From an uncultured Acidobacteriota bacterium (lineage in GTDB: Bacteria; Acidobacteriota; Thermoanaerobaculia; Multivoradales; UBA5704), in contig CAVWOZ010000017.1 in assembly GCA_963756595.1 (NCBI GenBank), positions 26,597 through 90,596 on the forward strand: a stretch of DNA of 64,000 nt, read 5' to 3'. Below are positions 3,067 to 64,000 of the stretch, piece by piece. How positions within the stretch are numbered: the stretch's first letter is position 1; each line of letters starts with the position of its first letter. The notes beneath the pieces were generated by a model that saw only the letters and a program-made list of their open reading frames with translations, had not been told where the DNA came from and made no database searches. The position numbers were made by a program, and so were the translations under genes.

Positions 3067-3078
3067 CAGCAGTCGTCC

Positions 3079-23149: not shown

Positions 23150-23202
23150 CCGACACGCCGGTGACCCCGGCGGCAGGGCGGCAGGGAGATCGGGGCCGCC
23201 CA

Positions 23203-31025: not shown

Positions 31026-32045
31026 ATGCCGAAGTTTGTGCTCGACCACGACGAGGTGGCGTCGATCCAGAAGCTGCTCGCCGGGATCGCGGCGAAGTAC
31101 CGCTCGGCCGAGGACCCCGAGCTCCTGCTCGAGGCGAATCTGCTGGCCCACGAGCTCCCCCGCCGCCTGCGCGCCGCTCTCAACGAGTTCCGCCTCACCG
31201 AGCCCGACGAGGCGATGCTGGTCATCTCGGGGTTCCCGGTCGACGACGTGAAGATCGGCTTGACGCCCGAGCACTGGAAGCTGTCGTCGGAACAGCGGGA
31301 GCCCACCCTCGAGGAGGAGATCCTCTTCGTGCTCGCCGGCTCGCTGCTCGGCGAGTGCATCGGCTGGGCGACCCAGCAGGACGGCCGGATCGTGCACGAC
31401 GTGATGCCGGTCAAGGGGATGGAGCAGGAGCAGATCGGCATCGGCAGCGAGCAGACCATCTGGTGGCACACCGAGGACGCCTTCCACCCGCTGGCCGGCG
31501 ACTACATCGGGCTGATGTTCCTGCGCAACCCGGACCACGTGCCGACCACTTTCGCCCCCGTCGCCGATCTGGGGCTCGCCGACGAGGACCTCGACCTCCT
31601 CTTCGCGCCCCACTTCACCATCCAGCCCGACAAGTCGCACCGGCCGGAGAACGCCGGCGACGCCAAGGGGGAGGGGGACGGCCACCTCTTCGATCACATC
31701 GAGGAGCTGCGCAAGGCGCCGCCGAAGATCGCCATCCTCTCCGGCGACCGCAAGTCCCCCTACATCCGGATCGACCCCTACTTCATGGACCCGGCGGCCG
31801 ACAGCCCGCGGGCGCTCCAGGCGTTCGAGGCGCTGGTCAAGGCGCTCGACGCGCGGATCGGCGACCTCGCCCTCGACGCCGGCGAGATCTGCTTCGTCGA
31901 CAACCGCAAAGCGGTGCACGGCCGCCGCGCCTTCAAGGCGCGCTACGACGGCCACGACCGCTGGTTCAAGCGGATGAACATCACGCGCGACCTCCGGAAG
32001 TCGCGGGAGGCCCGCTCCGACGCGGCGTCACGGATCATCCAGTAA
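31026..32045 (+). CDS. Fe(II)/2-oxoglutarate-dependent oxygenase, clavaminate-synthase-like (VioC/AsnO/MppO-type amino-acid beta-hydroxylase family)
   Basis: 339 aa with the HxE/D facial-triad motif WHTEDAFHP and the distal H...R pair in RKAVHGRRAF. Size and motif spacing match VioC/AsnO. AAAGGA SD before the ATG. Adjacent to the NRPS cluster. Confidence 0.65.
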   Translation: MPKFVLDHDEVASIQKLLAGIAAKYRSAEDPELLLEANLLAHELPRRLRAALNEFRLTEPDEAMLVISGFPVDDVKIGLTPEHWKLSSEQREPTLEEEILFVLAGSLLGECIGWATQQDGRIVHDVMPVKGMEQEQIGIGSEQTIWWHTEDAFHPLAGDYIGLMFLRNPDHVPTTFAPVADLGLADEDLDLLFAPHFTIQPDKSHRPENAGDAKGEGDGHLFDHIEELRKAPPKIAILSGDRKSPYIRIDPYFMDPAADSPRALQAFEALVKALDARIGDLALDAGEICFVDNRKAVHGRRAFKARYDGHDRWFKRMNITRDLRKSREARSDAASRIIQ

Positions 32046-32110: not shown

Positions 32111-32833
32111 TTGGACCCACTCCCCCGCCGCCGACCGAAGTCCGGAAACGCCGCCTTCCCCGCCTCCGGCGGCGGGATGCGGGCGCTGTTCCTGGGGAGC
32201 AGCCTCACCTACGCCAACGACATGCCCTTCATCGTGCAGGCGATGGCGCGGGCGATCGGCAAATCGCTCGACGTCGCCGTGGTGGCGCAGGGCGGGGCCA
32301 ACCTCGAGGACCAGTGGCACCGCGGCGAGGCGCTGCGCAAGATCAAGGAGGGGGGGTGGAGCTTCGTGATCCTGCAGCAGGGGCCGTCGACGGTGCCGGA
32401 GAACCGCGAGAACATGCGGGAGTACACGCGCCGCTTCGCCGAGCCGATCCACAAGGCGGGAGGCCGGCCGGCGCTCTACATGGTCTGGCCGAGCGCCGAC
32501 CGCATGGCCTGGTTCGACGAGGTCCGCAAGTCCTACACGCTGGCCGCCGAGGACGTCGGCGGCATGCTGATCCCGGCCGGCGAGGCCTGGCGGGCGGCGT
32601 GGCGGCGCGATCCCGACGTTTCCCTGCTCAAGCGCGACGGCGTCCACCCCACCCCGGCGGGGTCGTTCACGGTGGCGCTGTCGATCTTCGGCATGCTGTT
32701 CAGCCGCTCGCCGGTGGGGCTGCCGGCGCGCGTGAGGCTGCGCCACGGCGCCTTCGCGCAGGTGGCGCCGTCCCTCGCGCCCCTCCTCCAGGACGCGGCC
32801 GCCGAAGCCAACGACCAGTACGGCCTGCGATGA
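32111..32833 (+). CDS. SGNH/GDSL-like hydrolase family protein (DUF4886-like), paralog 1
   Basis: Block I ALFLGSSLTYAND (a GNSL-like motif) and a DxxH-like C-terminal motif (DGVHPTPAG). TTG start at 32111 preceded by a TAGGAGA SD; the alternative ATG is at 32177. No signal peptide is evident. Confidence 0.5.
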   Translation: MDPLPRRRPKSGNAAFPASGGGMRALFLGSSLTYANDMPFIVQAMARAIGKSLDVAVVAQGGANLEDQWHRGEALRKIKEGGWSFVILQQGPSTVPENRENMREYTRRFAEPIHKAGGRPALYMVWPSADRMAWFDEVRKSYTLAAEDVGGMLIPAGEAWRAAWRRDPDVSLLKRDGVHPTPAGSFTVALSIFGMLFSRSPVGLPARVRLRHGAFAQVAPSLAPLLQDAAAEANDQYGLR

Positions 32834-32885
32834 ACCCCCACGGCGCGATCCCGCGCTCCATCCATCACCCATGGGAGACCGGCAG

Positions 32886-33680
32886 ATGTCGATTCGAGGC
32901 AACGGCCTTTCCGTCGCCGGCGCGGCTTCGCGCCTCGCGATCATCCTGTCCCTGCTGTTCGGCTGCGCCGGCAAGTCCGGCGCGGAGCCCGAGAAAGGCG
33001 AACCCGTGAAATCCGGCAAGACTCTGCGCGTCCTCTTCCTCGGCAACAGCCTGACCTACGCCAACGAGATCCCGCTCATCGTGCAGGCGCTCGCCAGGTC
33101 GGCCGGCCAGGAGCTCTACGTCGAATCGATCACGTATCCCAACTTCAACCTCGAGGACCAGTGGAACCAGGGGGACGCGCTGCGCGCCCTCGACACCAAG
33201 AAGTGGGATTACGTGGTGATGCAGCAGGGACCCTCGTCGCTGATCGAAAACCGCGAGGACATGCGCAAGTGGGCCAAGCAGTTCGCCCCCCGGATCAAGA
33301 AGGCCGGCGCCCGCCCCGCGATGTACATGGTGTGGCCGGACAAGAGCCGGATGGCCTACTTCGACGACGTCCGCGAGGCCTACTCGCTCACCGCCTCGGA
33401 CATCAAGGGGATGTTCATCCCCGCCGGCGAGGCGTGGCGGGCGGCCTGGAAGCGGGATCCGGGCGCCCCGCTCTACTCCTACGACGACTTCCATCCGTCG
33501 GTCGCCGGCTCCTACACCTCGGCGCTGTCGATCTACGGCATGCTCTACAACCGGCCGTTGCAGGGGCTCCCCGCGAAGCTCACGATCGCCGGCAGCCACG
33601 ACATCGAAGTCCCCGCGCCGCTCGCCAAGCTTCTCCAGGAGGCGGCGACCGAGGCGAACCAGAAGTACGGCCGCCCCTGA
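32886..33680 (+). CDS. SGNH/GDSL-like hydrolase family lipoprotein, paralog 2
   Basis: About 55% identical to paralog 1 (VLFLGNSLTYANEIPLIVQALAR...MYMVWPDKSRMAYFDDVREAY...DDFHPSVAGSY). Lipoprotein signal MSIRGNGLSVAGAASRLAIILSLLFGCAG with a GGGAGA SD. The longest ORF begins at 32871. Confidence 0.55.
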   Translation: MSIRGNGLSVAGAASRLAIILSLLFGCAGKSGAEPEKGEPVKSGKTLRVLFLGNSLTYANEIPLIVQALARSAGQELYVESITYPNFNLEDQWNQGDALRALDTKKWDYVVMQQGPSSLIENREDMRKWAKQFAPRIKKAGARPAMYMVWPDKSRMAYFDDVREAYSLTASDIKGMFIPAGEAWRAAWKRDPGAPLYSYDDFHPSVAGSYTSALSIYGMLYNRPLQGLPAKLTIAGSHDIEVPAPLAKLLQEAATEANQKYGRP

Positions 33681-33765: not shown

Positions 33766-36156
33766 CTAGTACAGGAAGGCGTAGCCGATCTTCACGAAGA
33801 AGGAACGGTCGGTCTGCGTCAGGGGGATGCCGAAGATCCCCTGCCGGGTGTTGGTGTAGCCGGTGAACAGCACGGTCTGCGGGTTGATCTTGTAGGAGAA
33901 GAGGAACTGCCCGAAGAGGTTCTTGTCGTGCCGCTCGACTGGGAAGGTGTAGAGGTCGGGGTCGCGGCTGATGTCCTGGTACTGGATGATGGCGCGCACG
34001 AAGGTGCGGACGTTGAACTGGTAGACGATGCGCGCCTGCGAGAGCTGGGCGTCGAACAATTCGCCCCCGGCCACGCGCAGCTTCTCGTCCTCGTAGGAGC
34101 CGGTGAGCTGGAGGTGATCGCCGAGGCGGATCTGCGCCGAGGGGAGCCAGGTCACCGAGCGCGCCGGCCGCGTGTTGTCGAAGTCGATGTCGTCGCCGAA
34201 CTGGGTGGAGAGGCTGAGCTTGAGCCCGCCCGTCGGGTTGAAGGTGAAGTTGACGAGTTGCTGGTCGTAATCGAAGGTGACCCCGTTGAAGAACGTCTTG
34301 TTCTGGTAGTAGTGGGCGTCGAGCGCCGACTGCAGCGGCCCGGCGTAGGTGCCGTAGAGCTCGACGGTCTGGTCGGTCAGCGTCCCCTGATGGTCCTCGG
34401 TGCGCAGGGCGTGGAGGCCGACGCTCGCCTGCGCGTACCAGCCGCCCCGGCGATCGCTGTAGAAGTCGCGCTCGATCTCCCCCTCGGAGGTCTTGATGTC
34501 GACCCGCGGGATGAAGCCGCTGTCGGCGCGGAAGCCGGGGCCGAGGTCCTCGTAGGTGGCGAAGCCGCGCCAGGTGCGCGAGATGTGGTTGTACTGCAGG
34601 TGATAGGCGTCGTCCTGGAAGGCGTTGACCGACTGATCGTTGCGCTGCGCGACGGCCAGCGGATACTGGGTGTCCGAGCGCAGGTACTGGACGCGCACGG
34701 TGTCCGACGGGGTGAGGCGGAAGAAGCCGTCGAGCCCGCCCAGCCGGTTGTGGTAGTCGTCCCCCTTCCCCTCGCGGTCGGTGTAGAGGACGCCGAGCGT
34801 CGAGCGGTCGCCGACGTCGCGCCGGTAGCGCACCACGCTGCTGTCCACCTTGTCGTCGAGGAAGGCGAACGAGGAGTTCTGGTTCGAGGGGATGATCAGG
34901 TTGTTGAGGGCGTCCTGCGCCACGAACAGGCCGAGGGCGTTCTTCCCCTCCTTGGCGTTGACCTTGATCCCCCAGTCCGGGTCGGCCACCGTGCGGGTGA
35001 AGACGGCCTGGAGCGGGGTCAGGAAGAGGTCGGCCCCCTCGAGGAAGAACGGGCGCTTCTCCGGGTAGAAGAGGGCGAAGCGGGTGTTGATCGCGAGCTG
35101 GGCGACGTCGGCCTCGACCTGCGAGAAGTCGGGGTTGACCGCCGCTTCGAGCGAGACGTTCGGGGTGACCCCCCAGCGCGCGGTGATGCCGGGGTCGACC
35201 TTCGACTTGTCCTTCTGGAGATGCCCGTCGGGGAAGGAGTCGAGGGTGTCGCTGCGCAGGCCGGTCAGCGTCGGATCGAGCTCGAGGTTGCGGCCGGGCG
35301 CGATCCCCTGGAAACCGGAGATCTTGTTCTCTTCGCAGAGGGTGCAGTCCTTGGCGCGGTCGGTGTGGCGCGAGGAGATGCGGTGGCGGACGTTGCGCGG
35401 ATAGCTCCGGAACATCTCGATCCCCCAGGTCTGCGCCGCCGCGGTGCGCGGGAAGCGCAGCTGGCGGAAGGGGATGGCGACCTCGGCCACCCAGCCGTCG
35501 GCGGTGATCCGTCCGGCGGAGTTCCAGATCGCGTCCCAGGAGAAGTCCTCCACCCCGTTGGCCTCGGCGAACACGCCGTCGACCTGCACGCCGAGCGGGT
35601 TGACGCGGAACTGGAAGGCGCGCCGCTCGTCGTTGAAGGTGTCGATCTGGAAGCCGACGTGGTCGTCCTGAACGAACGGTCCGGTGGCGTCGCGGTCCAT
35701 GTAGTGGGCGCGGATCGCCTTCGGATCGGGGTCCTGGCAGCGGAAGGCGACGTAGAGGTTGTCGCCATCGTAGGTGACCAGCGCCTCGGTCTTCACCGGC
35801 GGAGTGACGTTGTCGCCGGGGTACCACTCGTAGGGAAGATCGATCACCGTCGCCGTCTTCCAGGCGTCCTCGTCGAGGATGCCGTCGATCTTGATCGGCG
35901 TCGTGGCGCGGGTGACCTGGAACTGGCGCAGCCCGATGGCCTCCGGCTGCGGCGGGACCGGGTGCTCGGGCACCGGCGGGGTGAGGTGCTCGGGCTGCGG
36001 CACGGCGGGCATGGCGGGCTGCGCCTGGGGCTGGGCCGGCGCGGGCGGCTGGGCCGGCGCGACGGTCTCCTGCGCCCGGGCGCCGCCGGCGAGCAGGGCG
36101 GCGAGCCCGGTGGCGGCGAGCAGACCGGTGCGGATTCTATGCATAGAGGCTCTCAT
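33766..36156 (-). CDS. Outer-membrane protein with N-terminal CBM9/DOMON-like domain and DUF5916 beta-barrel
   Basis: Signal peptide (MRASMHRIRTGLLAATGLAALLAGGARAQE) and a Pro-rich linker. The CBM9-like region is IKIDGILDEDAWKTATVIDLPYEWYPGDN...NLYVAFRC. The C-terminal residue is aromatic (...IGYAFLY), an OMP beta-barrel signature. The longest ORF runs to 36210. Confidence 0.55.
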   Translation of the reverse strand: MRASMHRIRTGLLAATGLAALLAGGARAQETVAPAQPPAPAQPQAQPAMPAVPQPEHLTPPVPEHPVPPQPEAIGLRQFQVTRATTPIKIDGILDEDAWKTATVIDLPYEWYPGDNVTPPVKTEALVTYDGDNLYVAFRCQDPDPKAIRAHYMDRDATGPFVQDDHVGFQIDTFNDERRAFQFRVNPLGVQVDGVFAEANGVEDFSWDAIWNSAGRITADGWVAEVAIPFRQLRFPRTAAAQTWGIEMFRSYPRNVRHRISSRHTDRAKDCTLCEENKISGFQGIAPGRNLELDPTLTGLRSDTLDSFPDGHLQKDKSKVDPGITARWGVTPNVSLEAAVNPDFSQVEADVAQLAINTRFALFYPEKRPFFLEGADLFLTPLQAVFTRTVADPDWGIKVNAKEGKNALGLFVAQDALNNLIIPSNQNSSFAFLDDKVDSSVVRYRRDVGDRSTLGVLYTDREGKGDDYHNRLGGLDGFFRLTPSDTVRVQYLRSDTQYPLAVAQRNDQSVNAFQDDAYHLQYNHISRTWRGFATYEDLGPGFRADSGFIPRVDIKTSEGEIERDFYSDRRGGWYAQASVGLHALRTEDHQGTLTDQTVELYGTYAGPLQSALDAHYYQNKTFFNGVTFDYDQQLVNFTFNPTGGLKLSLSTQFGDDIDFDNTRPARSVTWLPSAQIRLGDHLQLTGSYEDEKLRVAGGELFDAQLSQARIVYQFNVRTFVRAIIQYQDISRDPDLYTFPVERHDKNLFGQFLFSYKINPQTVLFTGYTNTRQGIFGIPLTQTDRSFFVKIGYAFLY

Positions 36157-36237
36157 CGAAAGTTCGTCTCCAGAAAAAATCGGATCGAAAACGGAGGGCG
36201 GGGGCGGCACCTGCGCGGCGCGCCCCCGCCTCCTCGC

Positions 36238-37629
36238 TCAGGCCTGGGCGGGAGCCGCCTCGTCGGGGACGTCGGCCGCCGCCTCGGGCTCCGGCTCCGG
36301 CTCCGGCGCCTTCCGCTTGGGGGCGTCGGGAAGCTCGGCCTCGACGTTGCGCACGCGCGGGTTGAGCAGCCCCATCAGGGCGACGAGCGCGGGGACCAGC
36401 GCCATCGAGACCATCAGCAGGCCGATGCCGCGGCCGGGACCGACGCCGATCACCCGGCCGGCGACCGTGCCGGCGAGCACGCCGCCGACCATCATCGCCG
36501 GGTTGAAGATCTTGTCGGCCAGCGGGCCGGCCGAGAAGTCGCCGAGCGGTACGGTGAACTGGGCGATCATGCGGCGCACCGCGAAGACCCGCCCCTGGAC
36601 GTCGCCCGGGGTCTTGCTCTGCCAGATCGCCTGGCTCGAGGCGTTCATGATCGGCAGGCCGATGTACCAGAGCAGCACGCCCGCCCCCACCATGTAGATG
36701 TTGGGACGCAGGCCGATGATCACGAACCAGACGCCGAGCGCCGCCCAGGCGCCGAGCACGCCGTAGATCCGCTTCTTGGGGCCGCCGGTGGCGGTCATGA
36801 TGGCGCCGCCGATCAGCGTGCCGACGCCGACCAGACCCATGATCGTCCCCACCGCCGCCTCGTTGGCGAAGGCCGCGATCATCGGCAGGATGGCGACGCC
36901 GCACATCGACATCACGAAGTTGATCAGGGCGAACAGGAGGAGGAGGTTGAAGAGGCCCGGCCGCTCGCGGATGAAGGTCCAGCCGAACGCCGCCTCCTTC
37001 CAGATCGAGCCCTTGGCGCGCTTCCCCTCCTCGCTCTGCTCCGGCCGCGGCACGTGCACGAACAGCAGCGCGCCGGCGGCGAACAGGAAGGTGACGAAGT
37101 CGATGACCAGGATCTTCGCGATGCCGCCGAAGATGACCATCAGGAAGCCGCCGATGGCGGGGCCGGCGATGGTGGTCGCCGAGCCGGCGAACTCGAGGAA
37201 GCCATTGACCCGCCCGTAGTCCTTGGGCTGCACCAGCAGGGTGATGGCCGCGATGTAGGCCGGCCACTGGAAGGTTGCGATGATCGAGTTGAAGATCACC
37301 CCGATGTAGATGTGCCAGACCTGGAGCTGGTTCTGCGACAGCAGGTAGGCGTAGGTTCCCACCGTGATCGCCGGGCCGATGCTGCACCAGAAGAGGACCC
37401 ACTTCCGGTCCCAGCGGTCGACGAGGGCGCCGGCGATCGGCCCGATGAAGATCCCGGGGAGCCCCGCGAAGACGATCGTCAAGGTGAACTGGGTCACCGA
37501 GTGGGTGTGCTTGAGCACCCACAGGCTGAGCGCGAAGCTGGTCAGCCCGGAGCCCATCAGGGAGACGAACTGTCCCACCCAGATGATCACGAACGTCTTG
37601 AAGGCACTGCTTTCTTTTGGTTCTGACAT
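36238..37629 (-). CDS. MFS transporter (EntS/macrolide-exporter-like), probable peptide exporter
   Basis: 12-14 TM helices and the MFS motif GALVDRWDRK. Lies immediately downstream of the last NRPS gene on the same strand, 55 bp away. Confidence 0.8.
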   Translation of the reverse strand: MSEPKESSAFKTFVIIWVGQFVSLMGSGLTSFALSLWVLKHTHSVTQFTLTIVFAGLPGIFIGPIAGALVDRWDRKWVLFWCSIGPAITVGTYAYLLSQNQLQVWHIYIGVIFNSIIATFQWPAYIAAITLLVQPKDYGRVNGFLEFAGSATTIAGPAIGGFLMVIFGGIAKILVIDFVTFLFAAGALLFVHVPRPEQSEEGKRAKGSIWKEAAFGWTFIRERPGLFNLLLLFALINFVMSMCGVAILPMIAAFANEAAVGTIMGLVGVGTLIGGAIMTATGGPKKRIYGVLGAWAALGVWFVIIGLRPNIYMVGAGVLLWYIGLPIMNASSQAIWQSKTPGDVQGRVFAVRRMIAQFTVPLGDFSAGPLADKIFNPAMMVGGVLAGTVAGRVIGVGPGRGIGLLMVSMALVPALVALMGLLNPRVRNVEAELPDAPKRKAPEPEPEPEAAADVPDEAAPAQA

Positions 37630-37684: not shown

Positions 37685-40600
37685 TCAGGAGGCGGCGCCG
37701 GCGCCGCGGGTCCGATAATCGTTGACGAACCAGCGCAGCACCTCGCGGCAGTGCGCCGCCAGCGCCTGCACCGTTTCGACCTTGTGCAGGTTGGTGTTGT
37801 GCTCCCACTTGATCAGCAGCTTGTCCTCGATGACGTAAGCGCCGATGGTGATCGGGCAGAGCCGCTTGGTGCCGCGGTCCTGGTGATAGCCGCCGAACAT
37901 CTGGAGCTTGCGCAGCCGCTCGAGCTCCTTGGCGTTGTCGGGGCCGAGGTAGTTGAAGAAGACCTGCGGCTCGAGCGCCTTGTGCATGTGGTCGACGACG
38001 TCCGGATCGGTCGAAAGATAGCGCAGCAGCCCGAAGCCCGTGCCGCCGTGCGGGATGCGCCGCAGCTGGCGGTTGAGCTCGCGGGCGCTGGCGATCCAGT
38101 CCGGGTCGGGACCGAGGTCGAGGAGCACCGGATAGATGGTGTTGAACCAGCCGATGCTGCGCGTCAGGTCCATGTCGTCGTAGAGCGCCTCGCGGCCGTG
38201 GCCGAGGAGGAGGATGGGGAGCGAGCGCGAGCCGATCCAGCGCTCGAAGGCGGTGAGCACGGCGGCGACCAGCACGGCGTCGATCTGCACGCCGAGGAAG
38301 CGCGGCACCTGCTGCAGCAGGATCTGGGTCTCCTCGAGGTCGAACTCGGCGGGCTGGAAGCGCGCCGAGATCCAGTCGTTCGGCCCCAGCTCGTGATCCA
38401 TCGGGAAGCGCGGCGGATTGATCGGCGCCTGCGCCAGCCAGTAGTCGAGCTCCTGCTGCGGCATCCCCCCCGGCTTCGCCCGCGCCGCCAGCCGCTCGGC
38501 CCACTGCTGCGCCGAGGTGGTCTTGCGCGGCACCGAGATCGCCTCCCCCGCCTCGAGCTGCCGGTAGGCGGCGTCGAGGTCGTCGAGCAGCATCTGCCAG
38601 GAGTTGATGTCGGCCGCCATGTACTGCCCGGTGATGTGAAGAAAACGGATCTTCCCCGGCTGGAGATCGAACATAACGGTACGAATCAGGTTGCCTTCCG
38701 CCATTTTGCAGCTTATCACGAGCTCGCGGACCGCCTTCGACATCACCAGCATCTGCTGGTCCTCGGCGACCTCGGAGAGGTCGACCCGCAGCAGGTTGAC
38801 CGGCGCGCCCGGCGGGTCGATGACGAGCGAGAGGCCCTTCCCCGCGACTCCCTCGCTCTCCTCGCCGACCACCCGCACCCGCAGGTTGTCGTGGTGGCGC
38901 ATGACGTGCTCCATCGCCGCCTGGAAGAGGTGGAACTGGAGGTCGCCGTCCTTCGGCTCGAACAGCATGCCGATCGTGTGGTAGTCGGGGTTCGGGTGGT
39001 GCTGGTCGAGGAAATGGAGCTGCGCCGGCGTCCAGCCGACCGCCCCGGTGACCGGACCCTGCTCGGCGACGATCTCGATGGTGCCGGCGACGGCGGCCAG
39101 CTCGGCGACCGTGCGGTGCTGGAAGACCTGCTTGGTGGTGATCCCCATCGCCGCCTTGTTCGCCTTGGTGACCACGCGGATGACGAGGAGCGAGTCGCCC
39201 CCCAGCTCGAAGAAGTCGTCGTTGATCCCCACCCGCTCGAGCGAGAGGAGCTCGGCCCAGAGGGCGCAGAAGAACTCCTCCTTCTCGTCGCGCGGCGCCA
39301 CGTACTCGCGGGCCGCCGAGGCGCGGTCGGGGGCCGGCAGGGCGCGGCGGTCGACCTTGCCGTTGGGGGTCAGCGGCATGGCGTCGAGGAAGGTGTAGAC
39401 CGCCGGCACCATGTACTCCGGCAGCTTCTCCTTGAGATAGGTGCGCAGGTCGGTGACGTTCGGCTTATCAGTACCGGCGGCGGTCACCAGATAGGCGGCG
39501 AGCTGCTTGCTGCCGGGCGAATCCTCGCGCGCCACCACCACCGACTGGCCGACCGCCGGATGGTGGTCGAGGGCGGCCTCGATGTCGCCGAGCTCGATGC
39601 GGAAGCCGCGCACCTTGACCTGGTGGTCGATGCGGCCGAGGAACTCGACGCGGCCGTCGGCGAGATGGCGCGCCAGATCGCCCGTGCGGTAGAGGCGCGC
39701 TCCCGGCTCCTCGACCAGCGCGGCGAACGGATGCGGGATGAACTTCTCGGCGCTGAGGTCCGGGCGCCCCCGGTAGCCGCGGGAGAGGCCGGCGCCGCCG
39801 ATCAGCAGCTCGCCCGGCACCCCGGCCGGCACCGGCTTGAGCTGGCGCGAGACGAGGTAGATCTCTGTGTTGTCGAGCGGCCTGCCGATGGTGATCGGCC
39901 CGGACGAGCCGACCTGGTCGAGGGTCGACCAGATCGTCGCCTCGGTCGGGCCGTAGACGTTCCACAGCGAGCCGCAGGCGGCGAGCAGCTGGCTCGCGAG
40001 GTCGCGCGGCAGCGCCTCGCCGCCGCAGAGGATCTTCAGGTCGCGGTCGCCGAGCCACCCCGCGGCGAGCAGCAGCCGCCAGGTGGCGGGGGTCGCCTGC
40101 ATGGCGGTGACCCCCTTCTGCTCGAGGACCTCGCGGAGCTTCTCCCCCGCCTGCGTGGTCTCGCGGGTGACCAGGATCAGCCGCGCGCCGCAGACCAGCG
40201 GCAGGTAGAGCTCGAGCCCCGCGATGTCGAAGGAGAGGGTGGTGACGGCGAGCAGGGTGTCGGCGCTGGTCAGCCCCGGGCGCTTGCGCATCGAGTTGAG
40301 GAAGTTGACCACCGCCGAGTGCGGGATCTGCACCCCCTTCGGCTTCCCCGTCGACCCCGAGGTGTAGATCACGTAGGCCACGTTCCCCGCCTGGACGCCG
40401 GCGTCGAGGGGGTCGGCGCTCTCGGCGGCGATCGCCGCCGCGTCGCGGTCGACCGCCACGATCCGCGCGCCGTGCTCGGGGAGGCGCTCGATCAGGTGTT
40501 CCTGGGTGAGGAGCACCGGTACCCGCGAGTCGTCGAGCATGTGGGCGAGGCGCTCCTTCGGGTACTCGGGGTCGAGCGGCACGTAGCCGCCCCCCGCCTT

Positions 40601-42340
40601 GAGCACCGCGAGCACCCCGGCCAGCATGTCGAGCGAGCGCTCCATGGCGAGGCCGACCAGCGTCTCCGTCCCCACGCCGTGGCGGCGCAGGTGATGGGCC
40701 AGGCGGTTGGCCCGCTCGTCGAGCTGGCGGTAGGTCAGCCGGCTCTCCTCGAGCTCGACGGCGACGGCGTCCGGGGTCTCCCGCACCCGTTCCTCGATCC
40801 AGCCGTGGAGGGTGACGGCGGGGACCTCGGCCGCGGTGGCGTTCCAGTCGACCAGCACCTGCCGCCGCTCCTCGTCCGAGAGCAGCGGCAGCTCCGAGAG
40901 GTGGAGTCCGGGGTGCGCGATCACCGCCGCCAGCACCCGCCGGTAGTGGTCGAGCAGGCGCTCCATGGTGCCGCGCTCGAAGAGGTCGGTGTTGTACTCG
41001 AGGAAGCCGTCGATGCCGGTCGGCGTGTCGGTGAAATAGAGGGTCAGCTCGGTCTTCGAGGTGCGGCTGTCGATCGCCACCGGCTGCAGCTTGAGCCCCG
41101 GCAGGTCCATCGCCTCGCCGGGGGCGTTCATCAGGATCAGCATCACCTGGAAGAGCGGCGTGCGGGCCATGTCGCGCGGCGGGTTGAGCTCCTCGACGAG
41201 CTTCTCGAACGGCACGTCCTGATGGGCGTAGGCGTCGAGCGACACCTCGCGCTCGCGCCCCAGCAGCTCGCGGAAGGTCGGGTCGCCGGAGAGGTCGCTG
41301 CGCAGCACCAGGCTGTTGGCGAAGAAGCCGATCAGCACCTCGATCTCCGGCTGGCGGCGGTTCGCGATCAGCGTGCCGACCGCGATGTCCTCCTGGGTGG
41401 TCCAGTGATGGAGGAGCGCCTTGAAGGCCGCCATCAACGCGATGAACAGGGTCGACCCCTCGCGCTGCGCGAAGGCCTTGAGGTCGCCCGCCAGACGGTC
41501 GCCGAGCACCAGCGGGATGGCGGTGCCGTTGTGCGAGCGCACGGCCGGGCGCGGGTGGTCGGTCGGCAGCTCGAGCGGCGGCACCGAGCCGAGCTGGCGG
41601 CGCCAGAAGGCGAGCTGCGCCTCGAGCACCTCGCCGGAGAGCCACTCCCGCTGCCAGACCGCGAAGTCGAGGTACTGGATGGGGAGGTCGAGCAGCGTCG
41701 AGGGGATGCCGGCCGCGAAGGCGTCGTAGATCGCCGCCAGCTCGCGGGCGAAGATCCCCATCGACCAGCCGTCGTAGGCGATGTGGTGCACGTTGTAGTA
41801 GAGCAGGTACTCGCGCTCGCCGGCGCGGAAGAGCTTGGCGCGCATCAGCGGCCCGAGGGTGAGGTCGAACGGCTCGCGGGCGTCGGCGGCGGCGAGACGC
41901 AGCGCCTCCCCCCAGGCGTCGGCCGGGTCGCTCACCCGCGGCCGCGCGTCGACGTAGGGGACCTCCATGTCGACCACCTGCGCGATCACCTGCGCCGGCG
42001 TCCCCTCGATCGAACGGAAGGTGGTGCGCAGCGTCTCGTGGCGGCGCACCACCTCGCGGAGCGCCTTCTGCATCACCTCCGGATCGAGCTCGCCGACGAT
42101 GCGGAAGGCCTGCGGGATGTTGTACTCCGGGCTCTCCGGCTCGAAGTTGTTGAGGAACCAGAGTCGCTGCTGGGCGAAGGAGAGCGGGTAGGTCTCGCTC
42201 TCGCGGGGCTGGCGCGGGATGCGCTTCGCCTCGCCGGCCGGCTTCTCCTTTTCCCGCTGTTTCTGGAGCTGCTCGAAAAGGAGCATGCGCTTCTCGAGCG
42301 GCAGCTCGGCGATGCGCTTGGCGATTTCTGTTTCCGTCAT
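37685..42340 (-). CDS. NRPS, final module: C-A-T plus terminal condensation-like domain
   Basis: N-terminal docking helix, then a C domain (YPLSFAQQRLWFL). A-domain core motifs are YTSGSTGKPKG, NVYGPTE, YRTGDLAR and VKVRGFRIELGDIE; T-domain motif is FFELGGDSLL. The C-terminal roughly 450 aa form a C-like domain with a degenerate His motif (LHITGQYMAADINSW). No thioesterase domain is present. Hand-extracted specificity code DILQLGVIWK matches the Gly code DILQLGLIWK at 9 of 10 positions. Confidence 0.9.
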   Translation of the reverse strand: MTETEIAKRIAELPLEKRMLLFEQLQKQREKEKPAGEAKRIPRQPRESETYPLSFAQQRLWFLNNFEPESPEYNIPQAFRIVGELDPEVMQKALREVVRRHETLRTTFRSIEGTPAQVIAQVVDMEVPYVDARPRVSDPADAWGEALRLAAADAREPFDLTLGPLMRAKLFRAGEREYLLYYNVHHIAYDGWSMGIFARELAAIYDAFAAGIPSTLLDLPIQYLDFAVWQREWLSGEVLEAQLAFWRRQLGSVPPLELPTDHPRPAVRSHNGTAIPLVLGDRLAGDLKAFAQREGSTLFIALMAAFKALLHHWTTQEDIAVGTLIANRRQPEIEVLIGFFANSLVLRSDLSGDPTFRELLGREREVSLDAYAHQDVPFEKLVEELNPPRDMARTPLFQVMLILMNAPGEAMDLPGLKLQPVAIDSRTSKTELTLYFTDTPTGIDGFLEYNTDLFERGTMERLLDHYRRVLAAVIAHPGLHLSELPLLSDEERRQVLVDWNATAAEVPAVTLHGWIEERVRETPDAVAVELEESRLTYRQLDERANRLAHHLRRHGVGTETLVGLAMERSLDMLAGVLAVLKAGGGYVPLDPEYPKERLAHMLDDSRVPVLLTQEHLIERLPEHGARIVAVDRDAAAIAAESADPLDAGVQAGNVAYVIYTSGSTGKPKGVQIPHSAVVNFLNSMRKRPGLTSADTLLAVTTLSFDIAGLELYLPLVCGARLILVTRETTQAGEKLREVLEQKGVTAMQATPATWRLLLAAGWLGDRDLKILCGGEALPRDLASQLLAACGSLWNVYGPTEATIWSTLDQVGSSGPITIGRPLDNTEIYLVSRQLKPVPAGVPGELLIGGAGLSRGYRGRPDLSAEKFIPHPFAALVEEPGARLYRTGDLARHLADGRVEFLGRIDHQVKVRGFRIELGDIEAALDHHPAVGQSVVVAREDSPGSKQLAAYLVTAAGTDKPNVTDLRTYLKEKLPEYMVPAVYTFLDAMPLTPNGKVDRRALPAPDRASAAREYVAPRDEKEEFFCALWAELLSLERVGINDDFFELGGDSLLVIRVVTKANKAAMGITTKQVFQHRTVAELAAVAGTIEIVAEQGPVTGAVGWTPAQLHFLDQHHPNPDYHTIGMLFEPKDGDLQFHLFQAAMEHVMRHHDNLRVRVVGEESEGVAGKGLSLVIDPPGAPVNLLRVDLSEVAEDQQMLVMSKAVRELVISCKMAEGNLIRTVMFDLQPGKIRFLHITGQYMAADINSWQMLLDDLDAAYRQLEAGEAISVPRKTTSAQQWAERLAARAKPGGMPQQELDYWLAQAPINPPRFPMDHELGPNDWISARFQPAEFDLEETQILLQQVPRFLGVQIDAVLVAAVLTAFERWIGSRSLPILLLGHGREALYDDMDLTRSIGWFNTIYPVLLDLGPDPDWIASARELNRQLRRIPHGGTGFGLLRYLSTDPDVVDHMHKALEPQVFFNYLGPDNAKELERLRKLQMFGGYHQDRGTKRLCPITIGAYVIEDKLLIKWEHNTNLHKVETVQALAAHCREVLRWFVNDYRTRGAGAAS

Positions 42341-42382: not shown

Positions 42383-45300
42383 TCAGCCCGGCAGGCCTTC
42401 CATCTCGCGCAGCAGCCTGGCCAGCAGGTCGTCGTCGGCCCGCGCCAGCTCTTTTTGAACGATCGCCTCGGCGAGTCCGGCCACCGTCGGGCTGTCGAAG
42501 ATGACGCGCAGCGGCAGCTCGATCGCGAAGGCGTCGCGCATCCGCGACAGCACCTGCGTCGCCATCAGCGAGTGGCCGCCCAGCTCGAAGAAGTTGTCGT
42601 GCGCCCCCACCCGCTCGAGGCGGAGCACCTCGGCCCAGATCGCCGCCACCTTCTCCTGCACCGCCCCCTCGGGCGGCACGAAGTCGCGCCCCAGCTCGGG
42701 ACGGGCGCCGTCGGGGGCCGGCAGCGCCTTCCGGTCCACCTTGCCGTTGGCGGTCAGCGGCAGAGCCGGCAGCGCCACGAACCACGACGGGATCATGGGC
42801 TCCGGCAGCGCCTCCTTGAGCGCCGCGCGCAGGTCGGAGACGGTGAGCGGCTGTGCCGCTGCCTCGTCCGCCGGCACGTAGTAGGCGGCGAGCTGCGGGT
42901 TGCCGGGCGTGTCCTCCCGCACCATCACCGTCACCCCGGAGATCGCCGGCAGGCGCGAGAGGGCCGCTTCGATCTCCCCCAGCTCGATGCGGAAGCCGCG
43001 GATCTTCACCTGGTGGTCGATCCGCCCCAGGTACTCGAGGTCGCCGTCCGGCAGGCGGCGCGCCAGGTCGCCCGAGCGGTAGAGGCGGGCGCCGGCCGGG
43101 CCGAACGGATCGGGGACGAAGCGCTCCGCCGTCAGCTCGGGCCGGCCGAGGTAGCCGAGGGCCACCCCTTCTCCACCCACCACCATCTCCCCCGGCACGC
43201 CGACCGGCTGCACGCTGAGAGCCGCGTCCACGATGTGGAGGGTGAGGTCGGGGATCGGCACGCCGAGCACGCTCCCCCGCCCGGCGGCGAGGTCGGCGCG
43301 GCGGATCGGCCGGTAGGTGACGTGGACGGTGGTCTCGGTGATGCCGTACATGTTGACCAGCAGCGGCCGCTCGTCGCCGTGGCGCGCGAACCAGGGGGCG
43401 AGCGAGGGCAGGTCGAGCGCCTCGCCGCCGAAGATCACCCGCCGCAGGGCGAGCGACGGTGCGGCCCCGGCGAGGACCGTCTCCTCCGCCCACAGGAGCT
43501 GGCGGAAGGCGGACGGCGTCTGGTTGAGCACCGTCACCTTCTCAGTCGCCAGCAGGGCGTAGAACGCCTCCGGCGAGCGGCTCTCCCAGTAGGGGACCAC
43601 CATCAGCCGGCCGCCGTAGAGGAGCGCTCCCCAGATCTCCCACACCGAGAAGTCGAAGGCGTAGGAGTGGAAGAGGGTCCACACGTCCTCGGGGCCGAAA
43701 GCGAACCACGGGGCGGTGGCGCTGAGCAGACGGGTGACGTGGCCGTGCGGGATCACCACCCCCTTCGGGCGGCCGGTCGAGCCCGAGGTGTAGATCACGT
43801 AGGCCGGCAGCTCGGCGTCGGCCGGCACGCCGGCGCTCGTCGGCTCGCGGGCGGCGATCGCCGCCGCCTCGGCCGCGAGGTCGATCACCTTCAGCCCCGG
43901 CCGCTGCGGCAGGGAGGCCGCCGCTTCCCCCTGGGTGAGGACGACGGCGACGTGGCTGTCCGCCAGGGCGAAGGCGAGGCGCTCGGCGGGGTACGACGGG
44001 TCGAGCGGCAGGTAGCCGGCGCCCGCCTTGAGCGTCGCCACGATCGCCACCACCAGCTCGAGCGAGCGCTCGAAGCAGAGCCCCACGAGGTCCCCCGGCC
44101 GCACGCCGGCGGCGAGCAGGTGGCGGGCGAGGCGGTTGGCCCGCTCGTCGAGCTCGCGGTAGCTGAGGGCCTCCGCGCCGAGCGACACCGCGGGCCGGTC
44201 GGGGGTCTGCTCCGCCTGCGCCTCGAAGAGGCGGTGGATCGGGGCCCGTCCCTTGTCCAGGGGCACCGCCGCCGGGTTCCACTCCGCCACCATCTGATGG
44301 CGCTCGGCTTCACCGAGCAGCGGCAGGTCGGCGATCCGCGCCGGCGCCTCGGCCAACATACCCGTGAGCAGGTGGACGAAGGAGAAGCAGAGGCGGCTGA
44401 TCGTCGCCGGATCGAACAGCTCGGTGCTGTACTCGACGTCGAAGATCGTCCGCTCGCCATCGGCCTGCACGGCGAGGGTGAGGTCGAACTTCGCCGTGCC
44501 GCTGGCGGCGCCGAGCGGCGTCACCCGCAGCCCCTCGGCCACGAAGTCCCGGCGGGCCAGGTTCTGGAACGCCAGCACCACCTGGAAGAGGGGCGAATGG
44601 CTCATGCTGCGCTCGGGCGACAGCTCCTCGACCAGCTTCTCGAACGGCACGTCCTGGTGGGCGTCGGCGTCGAGCACCGTCTCGCGGAGGCGCTCGACGA
44701 GGGCGCGGACCTCGTCCTCGCCGGCGACGTCGCAGCGCATCACCAGGGTGTTGACGAAGAAGCCGATCAACGGCTCGATCTCCACCCGGTTGCGGCCGGC
44801 GACCGGCACCCCGACGGCGAAGGTCGATTGGCCGCTGAAGCGATGGAGCAGCGCCGCGAAGCCGGCGAGGAGGACCATGAACGGCGTCGCCGCGAGGCGC
44901 CGCCCGGCGAGCTTCAACGCCGCGGAGAGGTCGCTGCCGAGGGCGATCCGGCGCCCGGCGCCGCGCCGGCTGCGCACCGCGGGGCGCGGGCGGTCGGTGG
45001 GGAGCTCGATCAGCGGCGGCAGGCCGGCGAGCCGCTCGCGCCAGTGCGCCAGCTCCGCCGCCAGCGTCTCCCCCGAGAGCCAGCGGCGCTGCCAGTGGGC
45101 GAAGTCGGCGTACTGGATGGGCAACGCCGGAAGAGACGCGGGCTTGCCCAGGGTCAGCTCGGCGTAGAGGGCCGACATCTCGTGCACGAAGATCGGCAGC
45201 GACCAGCCGTCGCTGACGATGTGGTGCAGGGTGACCAGGAGGACGTGCTCCTCGCCCCCCAGGCGCAGCAGGGTCGCACGCAGCAGGGGGCCGTGGTCGA

Positions 45301-48300
45301 GCGAGAACTGCAGCCGGCTCTCGACGGCCATGCACACCCGCGCCTCCCTCCCCCGCCGCGCCTCCTCGAGGGCGCTGAGGTCGACCACCGGCAGGGCTCC
45401 GGGAACTGGCGGATGGACCACTTGCAGCGGCAGCCCGTCGACGGCCGTGAAGGTGGTGCGCAGCGCCTCGTGGCGCCGCACGATCCCGTCGATCGCCCCG
45501 GCCAGCGCGGCGACCTCCAGCGCTCCTTCGAGGTGGAGCGCCATCGGGATGTTGTAGGTGGCGCTCTCCGGCTCCAGGCGGTCGAGGAACCAGAGGCGCT
45601 GCTGCGAGAACGACACCGCCAGCGCCTCGCCGCGCGGCACCGGCTCGATCCGCGGCGGCCCCGCGACCTCGCCAGCGGCGCCGGCGCGGCGGATCTCCTC
45701 GATGGTGCGGGCGAGCCCGGCGAGGGTGGGATTGTCGAACAGGGCGCGCAGCGGCAGCTCGACGCGGAACTGCTCGCGTGCCCGGGAGATCACCTGGGTG
45801 CCGAGCAGCGAGTGGCCGCCGAGGTCGAAGAAGTCGTCGTGGGCGCCGGCCCGCGGCACCCCCAGCACCTCGCACCAGATCCCCTCGAGGATCTCCTCGG
45901 CCGCCGTGCGCGGCGCCACGTACCCCCCCTCGCTCTCGGCGTGCTCGTAGACGGGCTCCGGCAGGGCGCGCTGGTCGACGCGGCCGTTCGAGGTCAGCGG
46001 CAGGGCGTCGAGCAGCACCACGGCGGCGGGGATCATGTGCTCTGGGAGACTCTCGCGGAGGAAGTCGCGCAGCTCGCGGACCGTCGCCTCCGTCCCCGGC
46101 ACCAGCGTCGCGTAGCCGACCAGCCGCTTCCCCAGCCGGCCGTCGCTGCGCACCAGGACGATGCTGTCCTTCACCGCCGGGTGGCGCGCCAGCACCGCGC
46201 CGACCTCCGCCGGCTCGACGCGGAAGCCGCGGATCTTCACCTGGTCGTCGCGCCGCCCGAGGTACTCGAGGTCGCCGGTCGGCAGCCAGCGGCCGACGTC
46301 CCCCTGGCGGTACATGCGCAGCCCCTCGCCGTAGCCGAGGCTGGCGGCGAACGGGTCAGGGAGGAAGCTCGCCGCCGTGCGGTCGGGCCAGTTGGCGTAG
46401 CCGCGCGAGACGTTGGGGCCGCCGATGTAGACGTCCCCCGCCACCCCCGCCGGCACCGGCTCGAGCGCGGCGTCGAGCACGTAGGCGCAGCAGTTGTGGA
46501 TGGTGCGGCCGACCGGCACGCGGTCGCCGGCGCGGAAGCGCGCCAGGTCCTCGACGCCGGGCTGGTAGACCACGGCGGTGACCGTCGCCTCGGTCGAGGC
46601 GTAGCTGTTGTTGAGGGCCACGCGGTCGCCGACCAGCGCGAGCCACTCCGCCACCCGCTCGGGGAGCGCCTGCTCGGTGCCGATGACGACCAGGCGCAGC
46701 GGCTCCGGCGGCGGCGTCATCGCCCGCGCCAGCTCCCCCACCCACTCGTGCCAGTAGGCGGTCGGCAGGTCCATGGCGGTGATCCCGTAGCGCTCGATCA
46801 GCTGCCAGAGCTCGCCGAACGACGGGAAGAGGCCCGGCGGACGCGGCACCACGGCGCCGCCGTGGATCCAGGTCGGGAAGATCTCCTCCGAGGTGATGTC
46901 GAAGCTGATCGAGGTGAACTGGAGAGTGCGGTCGCGCGGCCCCATGCGGTAGGCGAGGCCGCAGGCGGTGACGTGGTTGATCATCGCCCGGTGCGGCACG
47001 GCGACCCCCTTCGGCCGCCCCGTCGAGCCCGAGGTGTAGACGATGTAGGCGAGGCTCTCGGGGTCGATCTCCCAATCCGGCGCCTCCGCGCTCTCCGCCG
47101 AGAGATCGAGGCCGTCGACAGCGATCACCGCCGGCCCGCCGGCGAGCGCGGGGAGGCGGTCGGCGAGGTGCGACTGGATGAGCAGCACCGGCATGGCGGT
47201 GTCCTCGATCATCAGGGCGAGGCGCTCCTGCGGATACTCGGGGTCGAGCGGCACCCAGGCGCCCCCCGCCTTGAGCACGGCGAGGAGGACCAGCGGCATC
47301 TCGAGCGAGCGCTCGACGCAGACGCCGACCGACATCTCGGCCCCCACCCCCAGCCGGCGCAGGCGGCGGGCCAGGCGGTTGGCCTGCGCCTCGAGCTCGC
47401 CGAAGGTGAGCACGCGGTCGCCGAAGAGGACGGCCGGCGCGTCGGGGTTCCGGCGCGCAGCCTCTGCGACGCGGTCGAGGATGGTGGCGGGAGCTCCGGC
47501 GTAGCGCTGGTTCCAGTCGACCAGGATCTGCCGCCGCTCCTCCGGCAGCAGCATCGGCAGCTCGCCGACCCCCCGCTCGGGGGCGGCGAGGACGGCCGCC
47601 AGCAGGGTCTCGAAGTGGCCGGCCATGCGCGCCACCGTCGCCCGCTCGAAGAGGTCGGTGCTGTACTCGAGATAGCCGCCGAGGCCGCCGGGATGCTCGA
47701 ACATCTCGAGGGTGAGATCGATCTTCGCGAGCCCGCGGTCGACCGGCAGGCTCGACAGCGCCAGCCCCGGCAGGGCGAGCGCGCCGCCGCCACCACCCAT
47801 GGCGTTCTGGAGCGCGAAGACCACCTGGAAGATGGGGTTGTGCGACAGGTTGCGGTCCGGCTGCAGCTCCTCGACCAGCTTCTCGAAGGGGAGGTCCGAG
47901 TGGCCGAAGACGGCCAGCGCTTCGGCGCGCACGCGGCCGAGCAGGGCGAGGAACCCCTCCTCCGGCCGCAAGGTGGCGCGCACCAGCAGGGTGCTGGCGA
48001 AGCAGCCGACCACCCGCTCGTGCTCGGTGCGGTTGCGGTTGGCGACCGGCACCCCGACCACGAAGTCGCCCTGCCCCGTATAGCGGAAGAGGAGGAGGTC
48101 GAAGAGGGTGAGGAGCGCCATGAACGGCGTCGCCCCCGCCCCCTGGGCCAGCGCCTTGAAGCGAGCCGCGGCGGGATCGGGGATCTCGAAGCGCACCGCG
48201 TCGCCGCGCGGCGAGGCCATGTGGCGCCGGGGATGGTCGGTGGGGAGCTCGAGGACGGTGGGCGCTCCCTCCAGCCGCTCCCGCCAGAAGGCGATCTCCT

Positions 48301-48999
48301 GGCGCAGCGCCTCGCCGTGCAGGCGCTGGCGCTGCGCGCGGGCGAAGTCGGCATAGCTCGCCCGCAGCGCCGGGAGGTCGGGCTTCCCACCGGTGGCAAA
48401 GGCAGAATAGAGCGCGGCGAAGTCGCGCAGGATCAGCCCCACCGACCAGCCGTCGCTGACGATGTGGTGGTGGCAGAGCAGGAGCACGTGCTCCTCGCCC
48501 CCCAGACGCAGCAGCGTGGCGCGGAAGAGCGGCCCGCGGGCGAGGTCGAACGGCCGGCGCGACTCCTCGCCGGCGAGCGCCGTCGCCCGCTCCAGGGCCT
48601 CCTCCGGCGCCAGTCCGGTGAGATCGACGACCCTGACCAGAGGGCCGGCACCCGGAAGCTCACGCTCGACGCGCTGCACCGGCTCCGCCCCCTCGAGAGG
48701 GAAGCGGGTGCGCAGCGACGCGTGGCGGCGGACCAGCCCGTCGAGCGAGCGCTCGAGCGCCCCGCGGTCGAGGACCCCCGTCAGGCGCAACGCCCGGAAC
48801 ATGTTGTCGAGGTAGCTGCCGGGGTCGAGCTGGTCGAGGAACCAGAAGCGCTGCTGCGCGAAGGAGAGCGGATAGTCCCCCGGCTCGGCCGCCGATACCG
48901 CGGGAGGGGCGCCGCCCATCGCCTTTTCACGGGCGAGGCGGGCGACGAGGGCGAGCTTCTCCTCGCGCGAGAGGTTGGCGAGATCGGCCGGGGCGACGC

Positions 49000-49003
<4 letters not shown>
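42383..49003 (-). CDS. NRPS, two modules (C-A-T-C-A-T)
   Basis: The real start is a GTG at 49003 overlapping the upstream gene's TGA (GTGA); the protein begins MSVAPADLANLSREEKLALVARLAREKA. C domains carry HHIVSDGWS motifs. A1 has a non-canonical A5 (NSYASTE) and the code DIEDVGSVTK (acidic pocket). A2 reads DFWNIGMVHK, an exact match to the Thr code. It ends with a COM-like tail. The 3789-aa ORF listed for this frame is an upstream artifact. Confidence 0.9.
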
Positions 49004-55551
<6,548 letters not shown>

Positions 55552-55566
55552 AGTAGGGATGACTCC

Positions 55567-64000
<8,434 letters not shown>

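Follow-up and report, generated by a model that had tools for sequence, protein, structure and literature searches.

A predicted stand-alone L-arginine hydroxylase of the VioC/OrfP clade in an acidobacterial nonribosomal peptide synthetase cluster, and a candidate acceptor adenylation domain with arginine at the A10 lysine position

Trans-acting beta-hydroxylases feeding the modules of nonribosomal peptide synthetases (NRPSs) are textbook knowledge, with VioC, CmnC, MppO and AsnO as known cases. VioC (viomycin) and CmnC (capreomycin), both L-arginine 3-hydroxylases, are stand-alone enzymes encoded in NRPS clusters of actinomycetes and partnered by VioD and CmnD, whereas OrfP, the L-arginine 3,4-dihydroxylase of streptothricin biosynthesis, belongs to a non-modular pathway, in which its partner on the way to streptolidine is the cyclase OrfR. 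The enduracididine beta-hydroxylases GntD (guanitoxin) and MppO (mannopeptimycin) are members of the same superfamily. A related arrangement was found in a stretch of 64,000 nucleotides (hereafter, the window) from an uncultured soil Acidobacteriota bacterium (GenBank assembly GCA_963756595.1, contig CAVWOZ010000017.1, positions 26,597 to 90,596 of the forward strand). In this stretch, the gene of a predicted Fe(II)/2-oxoglutarate (2OG)-dependent L-arginine hydroxylase of the VioC/OrfP clade (31026..32045, plus strand) accompanies a block of NRPS genes. The window oxygenase represents a new, uncharacterised case of the known hydroxylase–NRPS arrangement, with an acidobacterial host instead of an actinomycete.

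The explanation favoured here, with moderate confidence, is that of a stand-alone Arg C3-hydroxylase dedicated to the NRPS as a tailoring or precursor enzyme. Arginine would be its substrate and C3 the site of hydroxylation, the product would remain uncyclised, the adenylation (A) domain of module 6 (m6) would be the acceptor, and that of module 4 (m4) would take Lys. This explanation draws on the enzyme family, the conservation of the active site, the membership of the gene in the cluster, the A-domain codes with their conservation, and the purifying selection on m6. Uncyclised hydroxy-arginine has precedents in EDHA and the fuscazines; the fuscazine pathway employs an ATP-grasp ligase and a hydrazine synthetase, not an NRPS A domain, and a limited literature search yielded no characterised A domain with 3-hydroxy-Arg as its substrate.

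The oxygenase gene starts with ATG and encodes 339 amino acids (aa); the GC content at third codon positions (GC3) of this open reading frame is 0.93, in a window of ~70% GC overall. The protein belongs to the same family as VioC and CmnC, with ~45% full-length identity, the same facial triad and the same 2OG-binding Arg residues. The motifs WHTEDAF (aa 147–153) and HGRRAF (aa 298–303) mark the triad H148/E150/H298, and R300, R312 and R316 are the Arg residues for 2OG and the substrate carboxylate; in the alignment, these six residues correspond to VioC H168, E170, H316, R318, R330 and R334. The predicted arginine contacts Q117, D202, S204, D250 and R316 (a Gln for the alpha-amine, an Arg for the carboxylate and an acidic sub-pocket for the guanidinium group) are kept as well, being equivalent to VioC Q137, D222, S224, D268 and R334. 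The difference from VioC lies at its L156, S158 and D270, which are Q136, G138 and Y252 in the window oxygenase, i.e., OrfP-type positions; hence, as in OrfP, a Tyr takes the place of the second Asp for the guanidinium group (VioC D270). The corresponding Q142/G144/Y257 of OrfP, versus the L/S/D of VioC and CmnC, were described as distinguishing positions (PMC9513391).

The nearest relatives in the PDB are likewise L-Arg hydroxylases, namely OrfP (the best match, 4e-87), VioC (9e-86) and CmnC, the remote ones including AsnO (1.6e-33) and lysine hydroxylases (1e-19 to 4e-24). A preliminary description of the locus had called the enzyme VioC/AsnO-like: the likeness to VioC holds, while the likeness to AsnO is too loose to be kept, and AsnO, Lys or Orn/Dab (ornithine/2,4-diaminobutyrate) chemistry is not indicated. 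Among the NCBIfam models, the oxygenase scores highest on GntD (NF041363; 464.5 bits, cutoff 345) and far lower on clavaminate synthase; on the VioC model TIGR03946, it reaches 418.3 bits, 0.3 below the cutoff of 418.6, the VioD-linked homologues of loci L006 and L007 (see below) scoring 401 and 418 bits. In Pfam, it matches PF02668 (TauD superfamily) alone, C-terminally at residues 250–317 with 36.8 bits. Judged by the sequence, this match reflects a superfamily-level resemblance and not TauD/TfdA proper, so the grouping with TauD/TfdA dioxygenases, named in the preliminary description as the contrary outcome, was not observed. By these comparisons, the protein is placed among the clavaminate-synthase-like amino-acid hydroxylases, in the VioC/OrfP clade.

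The likely substrate emerges from the partners of the homologues. Of 78 genome loci harboring an oxygenase homologue (numbered with the prefix L below), ~35 have an aminotransferase gene directly adjoining it. In L006 and L007, this aminotransferase is a VioD equivalog (~495 bits versus a cutoff of 390.9) and attains only ~245 bits on the GntC model (cutoff 415). VioD consumes 3-hydroxy-L-Arg; hence, the oxygenases of L006 and L007, which are 57–62% identical to the window oxygenase, must hydroxylate arginine at C3. The window oxygenase clade agrees with 36 VioD-linked homologues in every known contact to the metal, 2OG and the substrate, fixed differences from the VioD-bearing sister clade being zero, and the clade nests inside the VioD-bearing acidobacterial lineages in a neighbour-joining tree built without bootstrap. 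From the VioD partnership of the homologues and the identical active site, we infer hydroxylation of free L-Arg at C3. At the same time, tblastn returned no VioD-like gene from the window or from the flanking 10 kb of L001–L005, L008 and L011. Since no VioD-type cyclase dependent on pyridoxal phosphate (PLP) is present in the visible cluster, 3-hydroxy-Arg is probably used uncyclised, and capreomycidine, unlike in the VioC and CmnC systems, is not expected; a partner of the OrfR kind is not seen either.

As an observation in its own right, a large, mostly acidobacterial clade of VioC–VioD pairs adjoins NRPSs (L006, L007 and ~35 more loci), so residues of the capreomycidine type may be frequent among the uncultured phyla of soil; the oxygenases of these pairs carry the PGAP name "GntD". 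The K/Q239–D278 codes in the VioD-bearing loci (DAKDLGVVAK, DAQDLGLVGK, etc.) were considered as capreomycidine-type and withdrawn, being 9/10 to listed Glu codes; among these loci, only the DPQDLGVVIK of L052 resembles the DPQDIGIVNK of CmnG.

The NRPS is encoded by four minus-strand genes extending from the window end down to 37685. Two of them carry the A domains relevant here: nrpsB (49000..55551), with condensation (C), adenylation and thiolation (T) domains in the order C-A(m4)-T-C-A(m5)-T, and nrpsC (42383..49003), with C-A(m6)-T-C-A(m7)-T. The specificity codes were read from an alignment of the eight A domains with a GrsA-PheA fragment; the numbering reproduces DAWTIAAICK and K517, and the same extraction returns the published ApnA-A1 code DVESIGVIAK (PMC5311044). 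The code of m4 (52552..54189, minus strand) is DTEDIGTIVK, with canonical core motifs, and that of m6 (45944..47566, minus strand), the proposed hydroxy-Arg acceptor, is DIEDVGSVTR. Thus, the code given for the first A domain of the gene 49000–55551 in the preliminary description was exact, and so were Glu239 and Asp278 in the first A domains of both genes and the atypical A5 motif of m6, NSYASTE (46589–46609; canonically NxYGPTE). The m6 code was given there as DIEDVGSVTK and has to be amended in its tenth residue, as Arg replaces K517 in the A10 motif NGRVDQ (R1008 of nrpsC, codon 45980–45982, minus strand).

On sequence grounds, the pockets of m4 and m6 are assigned to the basic-amino-acid class. 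The cationic substrates proposed earlier remain valid as far as the nearest codes are those for Lys or Arg, and an assignment to non-basic substrates, the other contrary outcome named in the preliminary description, did not arise; Orn and Dab are not indicated for the enzyme. Among solved single A domains, ApnA-A1 comes closest to both m4 and m6, the m4 pocket segment scoring 108.5 bits against it. ApnA-A1 activates Arg and Tyr, and ApnA variants with DVEDIGA(I/V)EK incorporate Arg (PMC5311044). The D-x-E-D-(I/V)-G scaffold of m4 and m6 is shared with ApnA-A1 (anabaenopeptin), ScoA and MmaA (isonitrile lipopeptides), MxcG and CphC; m6 differs from such Arg and Lys A domains by its A10 Arg, GTE for GGE and YASTE for YGPTE.

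Gene context discriminates between m4 and m6 better than the codes do. In L089, 32 bp separate the end of a full-length oxygenase orthologue from the following NRPS gene, which opens with an m6-type module. The layout of L168 is the same as that of L089, except that only the C-terminal 137 oxygenase residues are left (2855–3262), flanked by a MacB-like gene and the NRPS gene with m6; either a truncation or an artefact of the assembly would account for this remnant. The m6-type domains themselves occur in two forms, i.e., D/E278 with R517 (the window, L086–L090, L166 and L168) versus N278 with K517 (L091–L093, L096, L167 and L170). Clusters with the R517 form have one or more genes of SGNH-fold hydrolases, and an intact oxygenase is present in the window/L008 and L089; across the related loci, the presence of the SGNH genes goes along with that of the oxygenase and of the R517-type m6, and so does their absence. 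L167 and L170, with the m6 code DIEN.GGVTK and K517, are devoid of oxygenase and SGNH genes at the visible cluster border, and so is L169, where m6 is not visible and the citrate-synthase flank is the same as in the window. L091 (2967–4823) and L092 (6762–8612) harbor a different enzyme at the spot that the oxygenase occupies in L089: DUF4350 (GIFT-like) is fused there to another clavaminate-synthase-like oxygenase (616–618 aa; NCBIfam CS1 ~250 bits), 30% identical to the window oxygenase and encoded between the nrpsB-like and nrpsC-like genes, directly before the K517-type m6 module. The m4 code, identical in six orthologous clusters, also occurs in the K517-type clusters L092 and L096, so m4 does not track the oxygenase-linked feature. 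Of the two domains, the m6 type alone follows the oxygenase, both in the order of the genes and in their presence or absence, a link that rests on few loci. The earlier pairing of the oxygenase with two A domains is only partly supported, as the oxygenase is not equally paired with m4, whose code is of the Lys type.

The m6 domain is unusual in its conserved motifs. It departs from its seven sister domains at ~8 otherwise invariant positions (GGE to GTE, YG to YA, GE to GD, GDL to GDV, DG to TG, EIE to EVG and GK.DR to GR.DQ), with A3 and A8 intact and D235 present. R517 was found in exactly 8 of the 163 A domains surveyed, and these are the m6 domains of eight assemblies; GTE and YASTE are common to all 14 m6-type domains, and all three features are absent from the other 149 surveyed domains as well as from the published code tables compared. 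Being seen in eight independent assemblies, R517 is not an indel error, and GTE and YASTE are family traits and not signs of decay, because the K517-bearing orthologues keep both. Nine of the ten pocket residues are invariant across the eight assemblies at 71–86% identity, and the ratio of nonsynonymous to synonymous substitutions (dN/dS) is 0.25 for m6, compared with 0.20–0.25 for m7 and m8 and 0.31–0.53 for m4 and m5. Decay of the domain was rejected on these two grounds: m6 is under purifying selection and lineage-specific, and its dN/dS and pocket conservation indicate a functional domain. Of all features of this system, only the conserved Lys-to-Arg exchange in A10 would come as a surprise to a specialist.

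By its code, the R517-type m6 is ambiguous between Lys and Arg. T331 is the Arg-consensus residue, although it is found in some listed Lys and Orn codes too, and the K517 form, DIENIGGVTK, agrees at eight of ten positions with DVESIGGVTK, a code for Arg/homoarginine. For m4, unmodified L-Lys is the most likely substrate according to the code, which is 8/10 to DAEDIGTIIK, DAEDIGTVVK and DIESIGTIVK, all listed for Lys or beta-OH-Lys/Lys (PMC12283262, Table S10), and also 8/10 to the ScoA code DTEDVGTVVK, whose domain prefers L-Lys by ATP–PPi exchange (bioRxiv 10.1101/121228). Literature searches for the exact A-domain codes retrieved this isonitrile-lipopeptide paper alone. The m4 code fits the Lys pattern D-x-E-(D/S)-I-G-T-(V/I)-(V/I)-K, including the Lys hallmarks T322 and a hydrophobic residue at 331 (V331), whereas A322 and T/D331 predominate among the Arg codes listed.

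Several points weigh against the favoured explanation. The R517-type m6 code is nearest (8/10) to the DIEDVGSVVK of MmaA, a domain that prefers L-Lys (bioRxiv 10.1101/121228), and its S322 is more typical of Lys and Orn codes than of Arg codes with A322. K517 counts as indispensable to adenylation (PMC11253843), so a domain with R517 may adenylate poorly. The loci displaying the co-variation are few: the window/L008, L089 and the truncated oxygenase of L168 on the positive side, L167 and L170 as negatives, and L091 and L092 as alternatives; in addition, L166 is an exception in having an R517-type m6 and an SGNH gene, but not an oxygenase gene, in the 10 kb around nrpsD. At its 5' end, the cluster extends beyond the window and could include a PLP-dependent partner or another Arg-type A domain; a search with the nrpsA fragment for this end returned no orthologue, generic NRPS matches of at most 55% identity being dominant. 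Finally, the oxygenase tree has no bootstrap support, and the OrfP state Q/G/Y in place of the L/S/D of VioC and CmnC bears on mono- versus dihydroxylation and on stereochemistry.

The last of these points leads to the alternatives concerning the enzyme. A chemistry other than that of VioC on L-Arg, be it 3,4-dihydroxylation as in OrfP, desaturation as in NapI or 3R-hydroxylation, with the product being incorporated, is rather unlikely. The diagnostic OrfP residues at Q136, G138 and Y252, the marginal lead of OrfP among the PDB matches and the existence of FuzA, a 3R-specific Arg hydroxylase, speak in its favour; still, Q/G/Y is the family default, carried by almost all of 84 homologues including the 36 adjoining VioD, and for this reason it was dropped as a predictor of dihydroxylation. 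Beta-hydroxylation of L-enduracididine of the GntD/MppO type, yielding a peptide with beta-hydroxy-enduracididine, is highly improbable, even though GntD is the top-scoring NCBIfam model and PGAP labels the members of the window oxygenase clade from metagenome-assembled genomes (MAGs) "GntD". As a control, the OrfP and VioC sequences were rebuilt from the PDB-match alignments and scored on the GntD model: with 415 and 398 bits, respectively, both of these genuine Arg hydroxylases exceed the cutoff of 345, so the label is not diagnostic, and a GntD function deduced from the NCBIfam match was rejected. The PGAP name is thus unreliable for this MAG clade, which is better read as arginine 3-hydroxylases. 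Moreover, the close homologues with the same scores are partnered with VioD and not with GntC, and enduracididine-forming genes are not visible. No GntC/VioD-like PLP enzyme gene was found in the window or the orthologous flanks, the cluster 5' end lying beyond the window; none of the Pfam families of GntB/GntC and MppP/Q/R is present in the cluster gene lists, which were inspected without a dedicated MppR-type search. The codes of m4 and m6 are also unlike the enduracididine code of Txo2, DAEDVAAMIK.

Other alternatives concern the acceptor. That the hydroxylase supplies both m4 and m6, giving a peptide with two hydroxylated cationic residues, is improbable. Such a scheme takes its appeal from the E239/D278 pair of both domains, their shared DLPTA(F/Y)WHE segment and 44% identity, the position of ApnA-A1 (Arg/Tyr) as the best structural relative of each, and Arg codes such as DTEDIGAVDK, which is 7/10 to m4; it is opposed by the T322/V331 Lys signature of m4, its 8/10 agreement with four listed Lys codes, its invariance next to either form of m6, and the Arg-type pocket of the oxygenase. 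An m6 unable to adenylate, i.e., a structural or skipped domain or one loaded in trans, with the hydroxylated product being taken up by a module beyond the window or having a fate unrelated to the NRPS, likewise seems unlikely. The reported invariance and essential role of K517 (PMC11253843), the ~8 altered positions and the location of the 5' part of the NRPS beyond the window would agree with it, but not the dN/dS of 0.25, the pocket with nine of ten residues invariant or the intact A3 and A8; besides, GTE and YASTE persist in the K517-bearing orthologues, and no stand-alone A domain is visible in the window.

Under the favoured explanation of a dedicated Arg C3-hydroxylase, the oxygenase would hydroxylate free L-Arg at C3 in the manner of VioC, and the 3-hydroxy-Arg would stay uncyclised instead of being converted to capreomycidine. 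Subsequently, m6 would adenylate and load it, with m4 loading L-Lys, so the visible part of the peptide would read ...Pro-X-Pro-Lys-Gly-(3-OH-Arg)-Thr-Gly, to be exported through the major facilitator superfamily (MFS) transporter encoded in the cluster. The changes of N278 to D/E and of Lys to Arg in A10 would have taken place in the sub-lineage carrying the oxygenase and the SGNH hydrolases. A bolder proposal, put forward tentatively, is that m6 constitutes an undescribed A-domain subtype using an A10 Arg, and that this exchange and the one of N278 to D/E co-evolved with the acquisition of the hydroxylase and the SGNH hydrolases, switching module 6 from Arg to uncyclised 3-hydroxy-Arg. If true, it would provide a natural adenylation domain independent of the A10 lysine, together with direct incorporation of beta-hydroxy-arginine by an NRPS. 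The conserved state itself deserves attention: an A domain under purifying selection carries Arg at the supposedly essential A10 lysine, and this variant state tracks the presence of the hydroxylase. Should m6 be active, a rule used by every A-domain predictor would need revision, and the hydroxylase and m6 would make an enzyme pair for putting beta-hydroxy-arginine into peptides.

The gene nrpsA (55567..64000, minus strand), cut by the window end, encodes ...A(m1)-T-C-A(m2)-T-C-A(m3)-T. The m1 code, DVQFIAHVAK, is Pro-like, and the m3 code, DVQFIAQVVK, is an exact match to a listed Pro code. For m2 (59900–60900, minus strand; DAWFAGHVVK), no close match was found in the published code tables compared; it resembles the Leu-type code DAWFLGNVVK. 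The codes DILQLGLVWK of m5 in nrpsB and DILQLGVIWK of m8 in nrpsD indicate Gly, and the DFWNIGMVHK of m7 in nrpsC indicates Thr. The last gene, nrpsD (37685..42340, minus strand), encodes C-A(m8)-T followed by a C-like domain (37688–39055, minus strand), in which QYMAAD replaces HHxxxDG with the loss of both His residues; this terminal domain is kept in ~50 orthologues. None of the NRPS genes of the window shows a thioesterase domain that would account for chain release. The ~50 orthologues of nrpsD, with a length of ~1,540–1,555 aa and an identity of 67–95%, delineate a widespread NRPS cluster family without a known product in uncultured Acidobacteriota.

The oxygenase gene is a conserved member of this cluster, though located ~5.6 kb beyond the last NRPS gene; its placement in the cluster flank by the preliminary description is upheld by the comparison of loci. 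An NRPS match occurs within 10 kb in most of the 78 genome loci with an oxygenase homologue. The block comprising the oxygenase, one or two SGNH paralogues, a CBM9/DUF5916 protein, an MFS transporter and the NRPS recurs across Acidobacteriota loci, including L011 and, rearranged onto one strand, L005. On its outer side, L003, L008 and the window have a pair of citrate-synthase genes, and L001 and L002 have rny-ymdB with ribosomal or tRNA-synthetase genes; because this flank changes between the loci, the cluster border was placed at the oxygenase. L008 (96% identical) is from an Acidobacteriota MAG, and the relatives belong to Thermoanaerobaculia. L017 and L020 were discarded as comparison loci: their oxygenases are of the same clade (65% identical) but are found in a different cluster with a sulfatase-like gene.

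The two SGNH-fold hydrolase genes lie on the plus strand directly downstream of the oxygenase gene. Paralogue 1 (32111..32833; likely true start ATG 32174) lacks a signal peptide, and paralogue 2 (32871..33680; 269 aa) has a lipoprotein-type signal, LLFGC. The two proteins are 54% identical, with the catalytic Ser60, Gly120, Asn127, Asp205 and His208 invariant in both. An AlphaFold model (predicted local distance difference test score, pLDDT, 67.8) matched DUF4886 (4i8i, 3e-8), an SGNH hydrolase and TesA, and the role may be that of an esterase or thioesterase. On the minus strand, the CBM9/DUF5916 protein (33766..36210; 814 aa), which has an N-terminal signal-like region and an aromatic C-terminus and is encoded in most versions of the cluster, is presumed to be an outer-membrane component. 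Its neighbour is the gene of the MFS_3/EntS-like efflux transporter (36238..37629, minus strand; 463 aa), which is the next gene downstream of the NRPS in every orthologous cluster. In L167 (18456–19874) and L169 (9448–10917), the oxygenase/SGNH position is occupied by a methyltransferase gene (472–489 aa), apparently a different tailoring cassette inserted at this edge of the cluster.

Two further genes of the window seem to be disrupted. The fusion of a helix-turn-helix (MerR/excisionase) domain with a citrate-synthase-like domain (29620–30823, plus strand) displays a frameshift at ~30000–30160 relative to the intact 407-aa orthologue of L003, and it is either a pseudogene or the result of an assembly indel. 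In the gene of an AcrB-like pump of the RND type (19925–23164, plus strand), an apparent frameshift is located near 22260, with the ACR_tran Pfam positions 1–785 in one frame and 786–1019 in another (22257–23147). The presence of frameshifts in both genes suggests long-read indel errors.

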